IMG/VR virus record: IMGVR_UViG_2718218098_000005
Location: 1 to 40,480 of that record
Source of the DNA: a virus
Lineage: Duplodnaviria > Heunggongvirae > Uroviricota > Caudoviricetes
Direction: 5' to 3' (one strand)
DNA length: 40,480 nucleotides
The notes under the pieces: model-generated
Seen by the model: only the letters and a program-made list of their open reading frames with translations
The model's database searches: none
What the model was told of the DNA's origin: nothing
Part shown: positions 26,908-36,062 of the stretch, in pieces
Layout: every line of letters begins with the position of its first letter
How positions within the stretch are numbered: the first letter of the stretch is position 1
Translations under genes and position numbers: made by a program

Positions 26908-27168
26908 TCACTCATCTTCAAAAGCAGAAAAACCAGCCTTAATCCCAGCTTCTTTCAGAGACGGCAACGATGTGACAAATTCATTTGCACGCAAAATAAA
27001 ACCATCCGTCACAAGCCCATCCACCAAATGAATTAACGCAGCTCCACTCTTCCTTTGTTGAGACTGTAAACATTTAATACGGCAGAGGCTGACAATAGCA
27101 CCATTCTCAACGTGCACAGCATAGAGGCCATTTTCACTAAAAATTTCACGCAATTTTTCGATTTTCAT
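26908..27168 (-). CDS. rem: Rem-like protein (86 aa)
   Basis: Synteny (between ydfU and hokD as in Qin); RBS GGAAGGA; sequence identity not verified. Confidence 0.5.
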   Translation of the reverse strand: MKIEKLREIFSENGLYAVHVENGAIVSLCRIKCLQSQQRKSGAALIHLVDGLVTDGFILRANEFVTSLPSLKEAGIKAGFSAFEDE

Positions 27169-27388: not shown

Positions 27389-27544
27389 TTACTCCTCAGG
27401 TTCGTAAGCTGTGAAGACAGCGACCTCCGTCTGGCCGGTTCGGATTCGTACCTCGCAGAGGTCTTTCCTCGTTACCAGTGCTGTCACTATGACGGTTAAA
27501 CAGATGACGATCAGGGCGATTAACATCGCCTTTTGCTGCTTCAT
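27389..27544 (-). CDS. hokD: Hok/Gef family type I toxin (HokD/RelF-like, 51 aa)
   Basis: MKQQKAMLIALIVICLTVIVTALVTRKDLCEVRIRTGQTEVAVFTAYEPEE matches HokD by recollection; single TM + conserved Cys. Confidence 0.85.
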   Translation of the reverse strand: MKQQKAMLIALIVICLTVIVTALVTRKDLCEVRIRTGQTEVAVFTAYEPEE

Positions 27545-27732
27545 AGCCTGCTTCTCCTTGACCTCTCGGTCCGTAAGAGGCAATCTATATGTGACGAGCA
27601 TATAGGGGCCTCACTTCGATTTATAGTCGGGTGGGGCTTTTATCTATCTGCCTTTGGTGTTCATGCCTGAGGCAGATAGCCTCAAGCACCCGCAGCAATT
27701 CTACTTAACTCTCCTTTTCCCGCAAACCGTTT

Positions 27733-32142: not shown

Positions 32143-32971
32143 GGTTTACCCCCTTGCTGACTGGTTTAACCTGCGCCCTGACGTGATTTACGTGACGGGC
32201 GAATTTCTGCTCCCACTGAATCTGCGTAAACACTTTCCCCTCCGCTGCCCAGTAGTCCCGGAAGGCGGCAAGTTCAGCAGGTGTAAATTCTGTCTCCGGC
32301 AAAGCCATCCCCCACAACGCAGCCCGTCGTCGAAAATCCCGTGACGGATACCAGCTATCGGTCATCGGAAATTTTCCGATGGGTTCGCTCAGGCCATCCA
32401 GGAATACAAGGGGTGCTGCCTGTAACGATAAAACTTCCTGCTCACTGGTCGGAGCACTCTCGCGTGCGTTATGTGTGGGGTTTAGATCTTTGGGTTCCTT
32501 TGGGTTCCGTGATCCGTTTTTGGGTGTCTTTGATGGAAAATTTGGGTGTCTTTGGTTATTTTCCATGCAGCTAAGAGTTCCGTTTTTGGGTCTGTTTTTT
32601 GCTGAAACATAACCATTTTCGGTACTGTTTTTATTAACAGCACCAATTTTACCCACCTTTAAAGACTCCCGTTTTTGGGTGTATTCAGGCTCGGCAACAC
32701 TTTCTTCTACACCGATAAGTCGGTACACCACAATTTGCTTTGTTCTGCCTTTTCTCTCACCGGTATCAACAATTAACCCAATCTCCATCAGGTGTCGTAA
32801 GCTGTCCTGCACAGTCTTTTTGTTCAGTTCCGTTACTTCTGCCAGTGCAGATACAGACGGGTATGCACACAAATCGGCACCGCACATATCAGCAAGCCAG
32901 GTCAATACAGACTTACTGGATGAACTGCCGGTTTTCACCTTTTTAGCCCATCGTAGTGCATCGATACTCAT
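31931..32971 (-). CDS. Replication initiation protein (O-like, N-terminal HTH)
   Basis: Start ATG 32971 (MSIDALRWAKKV); N-terminal winged-helix region; 3' 211 nt overlap P-like gene out of frame. Confidence 0.6.
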   Translation of the reverse strand: MSIDALRWAKKVKTGSSSSKSVLTWLADMCGADLCAYPSVSALAEVTELNKKTVQDSLRHLMEIGLIVDTGERKGRTKQIVVYRLIGVEESVAEPEYTQKRESLKVGKIGAVNKNSTENGYVSAKNRPKNGTLSCMENNQRHPNFPSKTPKNGSRNPKEPKDLNPTHNARESAPTSEQEVLSLQAAPLVFLDGLSEPIGKFPMTDSWYPSRDFRRRAALWGMALPETEFTPAELAAFRDYWAAEGKVFTQIQWEQKFARHVNHVRAQVKPVSKGVNHAAAPGGTASRAVQEIRAAREQWERENGFISDGNGLEAVGTHGGGLFEPLDPEERGRTFEALDCTDWRDD

Positions 32972-33494
32972 ACGAACCCCTGGCAGACATTTGTTTATCT
33001 GCAAAGTAATATTGATATTGCTGACGATACGCATGCTTGAAAGCAATAGCTTTTTCTATAAGCTCGTCAGTCTCACGTTCCACAACAGATGGATCCGCAA
33101 AAAGCAGCCCGGACTCCACCACATCGCCATATTCTTTGTTTAACCCGGCGATCATGTACGTAATGCTTTTTCCGTCAGTAATTTCACAATACAATCTGAA
33201 ATCGCTGATCCGGATAGCCTCCATAATTGCCGGAATCAGCGCCGTGAATTTTTCCCGCTTATCCCTGGTGTCGATAGCTTTCCAGCGTTCGAATATCTTC
33301 ACCCTGTTAACGCCCAGCGCCCGTTGATCAACCTCGCCATCATTAAACGTGACGCGTTGAACATCGATGTTCGGGCGTTCTTTCAGAGCCCAGAATGCTT
33401 CCGTGATTAATATCGTCGCCTGCTCCTGTGTCATTCCTGGTCGGCATACCCAGGCATCCAGAGCCTCACAAACCTGTTCAGGGATGATTTTCAT
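32943..33494 (-). CDS. YdaT-like regulatory protein (cII-position analogue)
   Basis: 183 aa directly downstream of Cro-like dicC with 17-nt overlap; assignment by position. Confidence 0.45.
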   Translation of the reverse strand: MKIIPEQVCEALDAWVCRPGMTQEQATILITEAFWALKERPNIDVQRVTFNDGEVDQRALGVNRVKIFERWKAIDTRDKREKFTALIPAIMEAIRISDFRLYCEITDGKSITYMIAGLNKEYGDVVESGLLFADPSVVERETDELIEKAIAFKHAYRQQYQYYFADKQMSARGSYEYRCTTMG

Positions 33495-33705
33495 TGTTCA
33501 ACCGCCCCGCCCGCTTTGCCTTACGATATTCGTCATAAACTTTGGGGTCGTACTGAAGTTCCCCACCGGATGCCTCTTGCAGGCGCATCGCGCGACCTTC
33601 AGGAACCAGTTCCCCCCATTGAGAAACAGCAGATGGATCAACACCAGCAGCTTTCGCTACTTTGGCTTTCGTCCCATAAAAATTAATTACGTCTGATTTA
33701 AACAT
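33478..33705 (-). CDS. dicC: DicC/Cro-like small HTH regulator (75 aa)
   Basis: ATG 33705 with GGAGGGG upstream; ..LVPEGRAMRLQEASGGELQYDPKVY..; divergent from dicA. Confidence 0.75.
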   Translation of the reverse strand: MFKSDVINFYGTKAKVAKAAGVDPSAVSQWGELVPEGRAMRLQEASGGELQYDPKVYDEYRKAKRAGRLNNENHP

Positions 33706-33782
33706 CACCCCTCCAAAGTTGAGTTTTCTCAATAGTAATCACTCAAGGAATCTCAAGTCAAGGGTTATTAAGATATCTAAAT
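33706..33782. promoter_or_regulatory. Divergent dicC/dicA promoter-operator region
   Basis: 77-bp AT-rich intergenic with palindrome TTGAG-TTTT-CTCAA (33719..33732); dicA ATG has no obvious SD (possibly leaderless). Confidence 0.6.
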
Positions 33783-34190
33783 ATGAACGAGAAAACTTTA
33801 GGTCAACGAATTAGAGAAAGACGCAAACAGGTTGGTTTAAGTCAAAACGATTTAAGCAAAGCCGCTGGCGTATCTGGCTCATCAATTTCACTATGGGAAA
33901 GCGACCATACAGCCCCGCGCGGGCAAAATTTGCATCGCCTAGCTGAGGTATTGCAATGTTCACCAACTTGGATACTGTTTGGTGACGAGGATAAAACACC
34001 AGATCCACCAGTTGCACTCAACAGCGCCTTAGACTTATCGGAAGATGAGTTGGAGATGTTGCGATTGTATCGCGCACTTCCAAAATCAGAGCAGCAAGCA
34101 CAAATCAGCGAACTCCGTGCCCGCGTTGAGAATTTTAATCGCCTATTCACCGAGCTACTAGAAGCTCGCAAACGTAACAAACATCAGTAA
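33783..34190 (+). CDS. dicA: DicA-like HTH (XRE family) repressor, 135 aa
   Basis: N-terminal XRE HTH (LGQRIRERRKQVGLSQNDLSKAAGVS..); ..LQCSPTWILFGDEDK.. matches DicA by recollection. Confidence 0.85.
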   Translation: MNEKTLGQRIRERRKQVGLSQNDLSKAAGVSGSSISLWESDHTAPRGQNLHRLAEVLQCSPTWILFGDEDKTPDPPVALNSALDLSEDELEMLRLYRALPKSEQQAQISELRARVENFNRLFTELLEARKRNKHQ

Positions 34191-34251
34191 CCCCCTTCAC
34201 AAATTTTAAAGCCTTACATTTCAATGTATTGGCTTTATTTTGCATTAAATA

Positions 34252-34301
34252 TTGAGTTTTCTCATTAAAAACGCTTGACCAACATTCATGAGAAAACTAA
34301 A
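34252..34301 (+). promoter_or_regulatory. Second operator-like site overlapping a candidate rightward promoter downstream of dicA
   Basis: TTGAGTTTTCTCA (34252..34264) and inverted copy GAGAAAACT (34290..34298) flank TTGACC-17 nt-TAAATT. Confidence 0.4.
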
Positions 34302-34383
34302 TTACCACCCATCAAGACACCGCACGGTGTTCTCAGCAAACAGTTCCGCTACCCGGCGTTAAGGGGAAACAGAGGATTTCTCA

Positions 34384-34740
34384 GTGGGCGAACTCAAACA
34401 TCAGAATGGAAGGTATCCTGGGATCAGCAAAGAAACAGCAATGGCGCTTTATATTGATATCAGCGCCATTGCCGGACAGGTAAGAATGATCAGAGCGGTA
34501 ACTAAACGGTATGCGCCTTTACTTCAGAAAGTCTCTGGTGAGTGCGCCGAAGATATCGTCAACGATTTCGTCATCGAATTGCGAGGACTCATCTTCAGTT
34601 ACAAGGTGACCACAGTTTTTGCAGATGGCTCCCGCGAAACTGTCAGAGCCCTGCGGTTTAAAGGATGTGTCAAAGACTTCGCCACCACATTCTGGGCAAG
34701 AAAACTTGATTGTATTCATAACCAATTTCCTCTCGAGTAA
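34384..34740 (+). CDS. Alternative candidate ORF (118 aa, GTG start) on operon strand
   Basis: GAGGA 7 nt upstream of GTG 34384; co-directional with dicA operon; no domain recognised. Confidence 0.3.
   Translation: MGELKHQNGRYPGISKETAMALYIDISAIAGQVRMIRAVTKRYAPLLQKVSGECAEDIVNDFVIELRGLIFSYKVTTVFADGSRETVRALRFKGCVKDFATTFWARKLDCIHNQFPLE
34519..34719 (-). CDS. Candidate C4 zinc-ribbon protein (66 aa); mutually exclusive with plus-strand ORF 34384..34740
   Basis: CPECGG...CKNCG motifs; GAGAGGAAA 6 nt upstream of ATG 34719; antisense to dicA operon direction. Confidence 0.4.
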   Translation of the reverse strand: MNTIKFSCPECGGEVFDTSFKPQGSDSFAGAICKNCGHLVTEDESSQFDDEIVDDIFGALTRDFLK

Positions 34741-36005: not shown

Positions 36006-36062
36006 TTTCTGGTGACGTTTGGCGGTATCAGTTTTACTCCGTGACTGCTCTGCCGCCCTTTT
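36006..36062 (+). ncRNA. dicF: DicF small RNA (ftsZ-targeting sRNA)
   Basis: TTTCTGGTGACGTTTGGCGGTATCAGTTTTACTCCGTGACTGCTCTGCCGCCCTTTTT matches E. coli DicF by recollection incl. terminator hairpin; located just upstream of dicB. Confidence 0.85.

Follow-up and report, generated by a model that had tools for sequence, protein, structure and literature searches.

The stretch of DNA analysed here, referred to as the window, comprises 40,480 bases and is an Escherichia coli lambdoid prophage, which in strain M19 is 100% identical over the region tested. A dicC-like cro gene is found on the minus strand at 33478-33705, encoding a protein of 75 amino acids (Pfam P22_Cro, E 1e-17; Cro/CI family regulator in RefSeq), and a dicA-like repressor gene on the plus strand at 33783-34190, encoding a protein of 135 amino acids (Pfam HTH_3, E 1e-16). 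The two genes are divergently transcribed, which is the arrangement typical of a CI/Cro-type switch, and their family assignments bear out the DicA/DicC-type pair proposed in a preliminary description of this DNA. The repressor shares 55.6% identity with K-12 DicA over its full length and 61% in residues 46-135, and displays the DicA-type LQCSPTWILFGDED motif and a helical C-terminal part; for the Cro-like protein and K-12 DicC the overall identity amounts to 71%, with 95% in the C-terminal 43 residues versus 37.5% in the N-terminal 32, which form the HTH part. A Peptidase_S24 domain, that is, the self-cleaving C-terminal domain, is absent from the 135-residue repressor according to Pfam, and this absence puts the protein in the antirepressor-controlled subclass. 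YdaT-like and O/P-like replication genes are found to the left of the cro-like gene, while ydfC, DicF RNA (36007-36058, plus strand; Rfam, 76.7 bits), dicB and ydfD are located rightward of the repressor gene, ydfC and dicB being annotated in the identical M19 locus. A Rem-like antirepressor gene is present at 26908-27168 on the minus strand (tblastn with K-12 Rem: 69% identity, E 5e-32), adjoining a hokD/sok locus whose sok RNA corresponds to 27542-27691. Rfam searches, at the gathering threshold over the whole window and at E<=5 over 34200-34500, retrieved only DicF, sok and tRNAs, with no match at the sites or at the leader discussed below.

The DicA/DicC immunity locus and the dicBp promoter of the Qin cryptic prophage of E. 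coli K-12 were reportedly described by Bejar et al. in 1986 and 1988. Judging from its sequence, the present locus is a DicA/DicC module whose specificity segment, roughly 33610-34310, differs from that of Qin. When this segment is compared with loci L002 (K-12 Qin), L004 and L006, the mosaic boundaries of the swap are sharp: the left one falls within dicC, between the HTH part and the conserved C-terminal 43 residues, and the right one falls exactly at CATCAA after the -10 of the dicBF promoter. The allele has been found in 797 of 5,426 complete E. coli genomes (about 15%) and is also carried by the functional phage mEp460.

The 9-base motif GAGAAAACT, or its complement AGTTTTCTC, occurs as four exact copies in the 40,480 bases, against 0.34 expected, and none of 100 dinucleotide shuffles reached this number. 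The copies are located at 33722-33730 (minus), 33789-33797 (plus), 34255-34263 (minus) and 34290-34298 (plus), all inside 577 bp; the preliminary description had counted them correctly but had placed the first and the third one base too low (33721-33729 and 34254-34262). Tolerating one mismatch yields 13 occurrences in the window versus 8.4 expected, which is no enrichment, so the signal resides in the exact copies. The motif had been taken for a repressor half-site; instead, it comprises the inner two or three bases of both half-sites together with the 4-bp A-tract centre of one and the same dyad, and can be described as the centre of a 14-18 bp dyad of the type bound by P22 C2. Very probably it is the core of the predicted repressor-binding sites of a lambda/P22-style immunity switch with an operator sequence specific to it. 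Of the four copies, three appear to belong to genuine operators (A, C and D), the copy at 33789-33797 being the probable exception. A position weight matrix (PWM), for which the training set consisted solely of A, C and D of six lineages, was used to score 80,934 window positions and ranked A first, C second, D third and E, a site outside the training set, fifth. The four sites have a 5+4+5 dyad core with TTTT or ATAT centres, and the operator consensus would be [T/C/A]T[G/A/T]AG-WWWW-CT[C/A]A[A/T]. About 12 kb away, the sequence TTGAGACAACTCAA at 21753-21766 matches the outer 10 operator dyad positions perfectly. It was rejected as a distant operator: it lies in a phrog_1935 ORF and is kept identical in prophages L105 and L106, which have unrelated immunity regions and no copy of the 9-mer; it is a coding-sequence coincidence.

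Operator A (TTGAGTTTTCTCAA, 33719-33732), which holds the first copy and has the highest PWM score in the window, is the palindrome TTGAG-TTTT-CTCAA noticed from the beginning; its arms are perfect and its centre is asymmetric. It begins at the last base of the -10 of a PR-like dicC promoter candidate and covers the likely start site, after which comes the GGAGG Shine-Dalgarno sequence of dicC. This promoter candidate (33732-33761, minus strand) consists of a -35 TTGACT (33761-33756) conserved across genera, an 18-nt spacer and a -10 TACTAT (33737-33732), with 9/12 consensus matches in a consensus scan, and the same arrangement is found in K-12 Qin, where Oc occupies the position of site A. 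A second dyad, TCAAGGAATCTCAA at 33743-33756, has a perfect right half-site and a left one matching at 3/5 positions (PWM rank 35 of 80,934); it is probably a weak middle operator, equivalent to Om, given that the block CAAGGAAnCTCA is kept across genera within the dicC promoter spacer, although spacers need no specific sequence. The third site, operator E (TTAAGATATCTAAA, 33768-33781; rank 5 of 80,934), equivalent to Oa, abuts the dicA ATG. From A to the middle site and from there to E the centre-to-centre distances are 24 and 25 bp, an OR-like triplet, so that the intergenic region would be a three-site OR rather than a single site plus a copy inside dicA; the initial reading had overlooked 33743-33756 and 33768-33781. 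The positions of the dicA promoter and of all transcription start sites are predicted ones. A weak -10-like TAAGAT (33769-33774) lies within site E, 8 nt before the dicA ATG, and dicA has no Shine-Dalgarno sequence; the dicA mRNA may therefore be leaderless, like that of lambda cI transcribed from PRM. The papers on K-12 likewise report no recognisable dicA promoter (PMC3441716; Reg-Seq).

Downstream of dicA, a terminator-like hairpin followed by a U-run is located at 34207-34243 on the plus strand (RNA fold -12.3 kcal/mol, z -3.8, then AUUUUG), and no polymorphism is observed in the hairpin region 34213-34236 among the 47 E. coli haplotypes described below. This element probably terminates dicA, in which case the downstream dicBF promoter would be independent. 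The candidate for this PL-like promoter, dicBp, is TTGACC-17-TAAATT at 34275-34303 on the plus strand (consensus scan); its K-12 counterpart is the TTGACC-17-TAATCT promoter that precedes ydfA, its -35 is kept across genera, and it is predicted to control ydfC, DicF and dicB. Two operators are found around its -35. Operator C (TTGAGTTTTCTCAT, 34252-34265; PWM rank 2), holding the third copy of the 9-mer, ends 9 bp upstream of the -35, and operator D (ATGAGAAAACTAAA, 34288-34301; PWM rank 3), holding the fourth, lies in the spacer and the -10, the 9-mer itself lying over the spacer and reaching one base into the -10. The promoter had been correctly recognised, but of the two copies said to overlap it only the fourth does so. 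The proposal of repressor-operator DNA at two places, similar to OR and OL, agrees with the data: one set lies at the divergent promoters and a second, C and D, at the promoter preceding the dicBF operon, in a layout like that of K-12 Qin. Single substitutions within C or D are present in some E. coli haplotypes (L022, L023, L025, L030, L057, L067, L072 and L094), with TTGAGTTTTATCAT, TTGAGATTTCTTAT and ATGATAAAACTAAA as examples among the IMG/VR loci, and may represent decay or tuning of the operators in cryptic prophages.

The conservation of these sites has been examined at two evolutionary distances. Among 47 distinct E. coli haplotypes of the allele, collected from IMG/VR and genome loci, polymorphism affects 8 columns out of 56 within operators A, E, C and D, versus 59 out of 143 in the rest of the non-coding DNA (Fisher p 2e-4; p 0.005 for random placement of four 14-mers). 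Operators A and D each have 2 polymorphic columns out of 14 and operator E has none; variable columns are found beside C (34249-34251, 34266 and 34271-34273), and the flanks of D (34283-34287 and 34305-34308) are hypervariable. Outside E. coli, five lineages, namely two Buttiauxella loci and three IMG/VR lineages, encode a DicA that is 75-80% identical and has the recognition helix SDS[S/T]ISLWESD. Across these genera the flanks are scrambled and the invariant blocks are A, the middle block with its -35, E, C, the second -35 and D. In terms of sequence they correspond to TGAGTTTTCTCAA at A, 13 bases invariant across six lineages, to CAAGGAAnCTCA[A/G]GTCAAG, to ATTAAGAT..CTAAATATG at E, to the dyads C and D and to both -35 hexamers. 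Operator E is retained in all five lineages and also in Citrobacter braakii. In lineage L102 the sequence of site D, CTGAGATATCTAAA, combines the D form with the E form, which indicates that E belongs to the same operator family.

Four other specificity types, K-12 Qin among them, possess their own dyads at the same positions. Such dyads were seen in K-12 Qin, in an O157-type allele, in L006 and, at a greater distance, in relatives from Citrobacter, Yersinia, Rosenbergiella and E. whittamii. The shared layout consists of a dyad beside the dicC start, a dyad at the dicA ATG, present in every type, and two downstream dyads flanking a TTGAC-like -35, always 20-22 bp apart with the -35 in between. 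In these types the operators were assigned by position, since an automatic choice of the best palindrome mispicked the dicC-proximal site in several loci; under this assignment the dicC-proximal dyad differs from the downstream pair by a mean of 3.2 mismatches within its own type versus 6.25 in other types. Moreover, the dyad follows the recognition helix of the repressor: SGSSISLWESD is associated with TTGAG, SHVSVSQWERG with TTAGT/C and AHVTISQWERD with TTAGA/G. With both its dyad and its recognition helix differing from those of K-12 Qin (operator TTGTTAGTCATAACTAACAA), the present module is predicted to be heteroimmune to it.

The A, middle and E sites match the Oc/Om/Oa triplet that has been described for K-12 Qin (PMC3441716; PMC10448788). 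There, DicA binding to Oc in vivo is lost upon one base substitution, while the sequence-predicted Om and Oa showed no DicA binding when tested alone in vivo (PMC3441716). For this reason E and the middle site of the present locus may be weak, dependent on cooperativity or bound mainly by DicC. K-12 DicA, which likewise has 135 residues (PMC10448788), represses dicC and dicBp (PMC3441716; PMC10448788; Reg-Seq). The two loci have in common the divergent dicC/dicA genes, the repressor lacking a cleavage domain, the Oc, Oa and weak middle dyads, a TTGACC promoter downstream of dicA whose -35 has a dyad on either side, a transcript leader of identical sequence, the dicBF operon (ydfC, DicF and dicB) and a Rem antirepressor in the same prophage. 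They differ in the operator (TTGAG-TTTT-CTCAA here, TTAGT-CATA-ACTAA in Qin), in the recognition helix (SGSSISLWESD versus SHVSVSQWERG) and in the antisense zinc-ribbon ORF that here replaces ydfA/ydfB. Reg-Seq lists the DicA site of dicB as one of unknown location; by position, the dicB-promoter operators of K-12 Qin (L002, 3785-3850) would be TTAGCTATAGCATA and TTAGTCATGGCTAA, flanking the -35 TTGACC.

A further comparison can be made with the P22 repressor. Residues 1-68 of the present repressor align without gaps with the N-terminal domain of P22 C2 (48.5% identity, E 2e-15; phmmer, PDB 1adr/2r1j). The P22 repressor recognizes 18-bp dyads in which positions 2-7 and 12-17 are contacted, the central 4 bp are not, and A-tract centres are bound best (PMC4267663). 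The dyads described here, of 18 bp with a 4-bp A/T centre, fit this geometry, the contacts being predicted ones. As in P22 immC, a homologous repressor N-terminal domain is found together with a Cro of the P22_Cro family and with dyads made of outer halves and a 4-bp A/T centre, and site E (TTAAG-ATAT-CTAAA) nearly matches the P22 half-site TTAAG. Unlike in P22, the base-reading residues are changed (N32G, V33S, A34S, Q37L and R40S; recognition helix SGSSISLWESD versus SNVAISQWERS in C2), and the main half-site is TATTGAG rather than ATTTAAG, TTAAG occurring only in site E; the difference in the helix is consistent with a half-site TTGAG rather than TTAAG. Furthermore, DicA does not have the C-terminal S24 domain of C2, and RecA-dependent cleavage is therefore not expected, while the PL-like promoter has two operators flanking the -35 instead of three in tandem.

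The likeness to lambda concerns the logic of the CI/Cro switch, the tripartite OR and the presence of a second operator set at the leftward early promoter. The centres of the lambda OR operators are 24 and 23 bp apart, compared with 24 and 25 bp here. In contrast, operators and Cro are unrelated in sequence to those of lambda, no cleavable repressor is present, and C and D are separated by 36 bp, about one helical turn more than adjacent lambda operators. The Gifsy prophages offer a parallel for the type of repressor: GfoR and GfhR are controlled by antirepressors (Lemire et al., as cited in PMC10448788), and, according to that account, they are short, non-cleavable repressors, like the one described here, which a small antirepressor protein inactivates. 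Relative to the Gifsy prophages, the Rem-like gene found here is not preceded by a LexA box; none was found upstream of it in a search for SOS control. A LexA-box-like sequence, CTGTTTTTATTAACAG (CTGT-N8-ACAG with an A/T centre), is present at 32625-32640 within the O-like (DnaT-like) replication gene; the pattern has two matches in the window versus 0.43 expected, and two were reached by 7 of 100 shuffles.

The copy of the 9-mer inside dicA deserves separate consideration. Site B (ACGAGAAAACTTTA, 33787-33800) covers dicA codons 2-6, with the 9-mer itself in codons 3-5, and it had been counted among the operator-like copies. Were all four copies operators, B would be an extra site, located shortly after the start of the gene, for the repression of dicA by DicA or DicC, and some observations speak for this: the chance that an exact 9-mer falls about 100 bp or less from real operators is roughly 0.005 (own 4^9 estimate for a 600-bp region), site B ranks 23 of 80,934 by PWM when the centre is counted, and it is kept in every E. 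coli allele examined, that of the functional phage mEp460 included. This last point carries no information, since B is coding sequence and 99-100% protein identity was the basis on which the loci had been chosen. In addition, the five lineages outside E. coli retain A, E, C and D, yet none has the 9-mer at B, where GAAATGACG, GAGATAACC and GAGATGACG are found instead (Buttiauxella, L102-L104). Both half-sites of B, ACGAG and TAAAG, do not have the second-position T that is invariant in 8/8 half-sites of A, C, D and E; its rank falls to 735 when the ten outer positions are scored; and its centre is 19 bp from that of E, off the 24/25 bp register. Site B is thus probably not an operator, although the improbability of an exact 9-mer falling so near to real operators by chance leaves a small share of likelihood to a lineage-specific auxiliary site.

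The remaining alternatives concern the nature of the sites as a whole. That they are read mainly by a protein other than DicA, either DicC alone or a host nucleoid protein drawn by the A-tracts, is considered quite improbable. The N-terminal HTH of DicC also varies with the immunity type, and since DicA and DicC both change between types, covariation suits DicC as well and cannot assign a protein to a site; H-NS/Cnu, Fis and Hfq, for their part, have been reported to influence the K-12 locus (PMC3441716; PMC10448788). K-12 genetics, however, attribute Oc binding and the repression of dicC and dicBp to DicA, the 5+4+5 geometry with an A/T centre is that of the dyads of P22 C2, whose homologue is DicA and not DicC, and host factors would not switch specificity with the prophage allele. 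Still less likely is that the inverted copies 3 and 4 form a hairpin, in RNA or DNA, and work for example as a terminator or attenuator instead of binding protein, as could be suggested by the inverted repeat 34251-34268/34285-34302, whose 18-nt arms are 89% complementary and 16 nt apart. The would-be loop holds the -35 hexamer, the dicA terminator lies upstream of the repeat, so that little transcription should cross it, and in the other immunity types each downstream site is a dyad without mutual complementarity beyond that; on these grounds the hairpin was rejected. Besides, each arm is itself a dyad similar to site A, and neither arm-to-arm compensatory changes across relatives nor pairing-dependent read-through termination was seen. 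Finally, the notion that the 9-mers are chance matches in A/T-rich intergenic DNA could appeal to the lack of enrichment at one mismatch, but it is practically incompatible with the exact-copy count, reached in no shuffle, with the clustering of the copies, and with the conservation of the sites within E. coli and across genera against diverged flanks; the exact-copy enrichment and this conservation refute it.

Taking the sites as operators of the DicA/DicC switch, a mechanism can be proposed in which the anatomy of the sequence, its conservation and the way dyad and recognition helix vary together are direct observations, and protein binding, affinity order, cooperativity and the logic of autoregulation are extrapolated by homology with K-12 Qin, P22 and lambda. 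The DicA-like repressor and the P22-Cro-like DicC would most likely bind the 14-18 bp dyads as dimers, contacting the outer half-sites and leaving the A-tract centre uncontacted, with TTGAG-TTTT-CTCAA as the best site. In the lysogen, DicA on A, presumably the strongest operator, placed over the dicC -10 and start, would keep dicC and the downstream replication genes off. Site E, on the dicA start and its weak promoter, would probably serve, together with the middle site, for the repression of dicA by DicC and by excess DicA. DicA on C and D, which bracket the -35 and extend over the spacer and the -10, would silence the dicBF operon (ydfC, DicF and dicB), and the 36-bp distance between C and D, equal to the OR spacing plus about one helical turn, would bring dimer-dimer contacts across the -35 in phase. 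In the absence of an autocleavage domain in DicA, induction is expected to occur via a Rem-like antirepressor or through DicA/DicC bistability; in K-12, Rem relieves the DicA repression of dicBp (PMC10448788).

A more specific version of this scheme, to which we give limited credence, is that the DicA family uses a fixed two-operator clamp on its PL-type promoter, with dyads whose centres are 34-36 bp apart on either side of the -35. This layout is kept across at least five specificity classes, and its angular phase is the same as that of the 24-25 bp OR spacing. If this were true, a DicA tetramer would bridge the -35, unlike the three tandem operators of lambda and P22 OL. In the E. coli allele, copy B might serve as an additional, allele-specific site of autoregulation.

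As to the novelty of the sites, a full-text literature search with the operator sequence retrieved no paper containing the 14-mer among those searched, the shorter fragments occurring only in unrelated papers. It would seem, therefore, that the operator sequence of this type had no earlier published description; the system itself is known, and the present one is an ordinary heteroimmune variant of it. The practical value of these results is small, and the understanding of such switches is unchanged by them. They define the operators, and the probable arrangement of the promoters, for a DicA/DicC immunity type that mEp460 shares with about 15% of complete E. coli genomes, they suggest from positions where DicA should bind at the K-12 dicB promoter, and they add one more natural pair of helix and half-site, SGSSISLWESD with TTGAG, among the P22 C2-like repressors.

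Some minor features have been observed downstream of the dicBF promoter. A small zinc-ribbon ORF with two CxxC pairs (34519-34725, minus strand; 'ECs_2282 family' in RefSeq) is antisense to the transcript and fills the slot of ydfA/ydfB in K-12 and mEp460. The leader of the transcript, 34311-34375 on the plus strand, is identical across the heteroimmune E. coli types and comprises, in order, CATCAA, hairpin 1 (34316-34331), YTCAG, GTTCCGCTA and hairpin 2 (34352-34365). Its fold energy is unexceptional (z -0.03) and no Rfam match was obtained; RNAalifold gave weak support, on a MAFFT alignment that misplaces the stems. The leader may be a nutL-like or processing element. In other genera its stems co-vary in a compensatory manner, ACACCG/CGGTGT being replaced by AATCAC/GTGATT and CCC/GGG by GCC/GGC, and the loop of hairpin 2 is GAAAG or GGAAGA, similar to that of lambda boxB, in the relatives from Yersinia, Rosenbergiella and E. 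whittamii.
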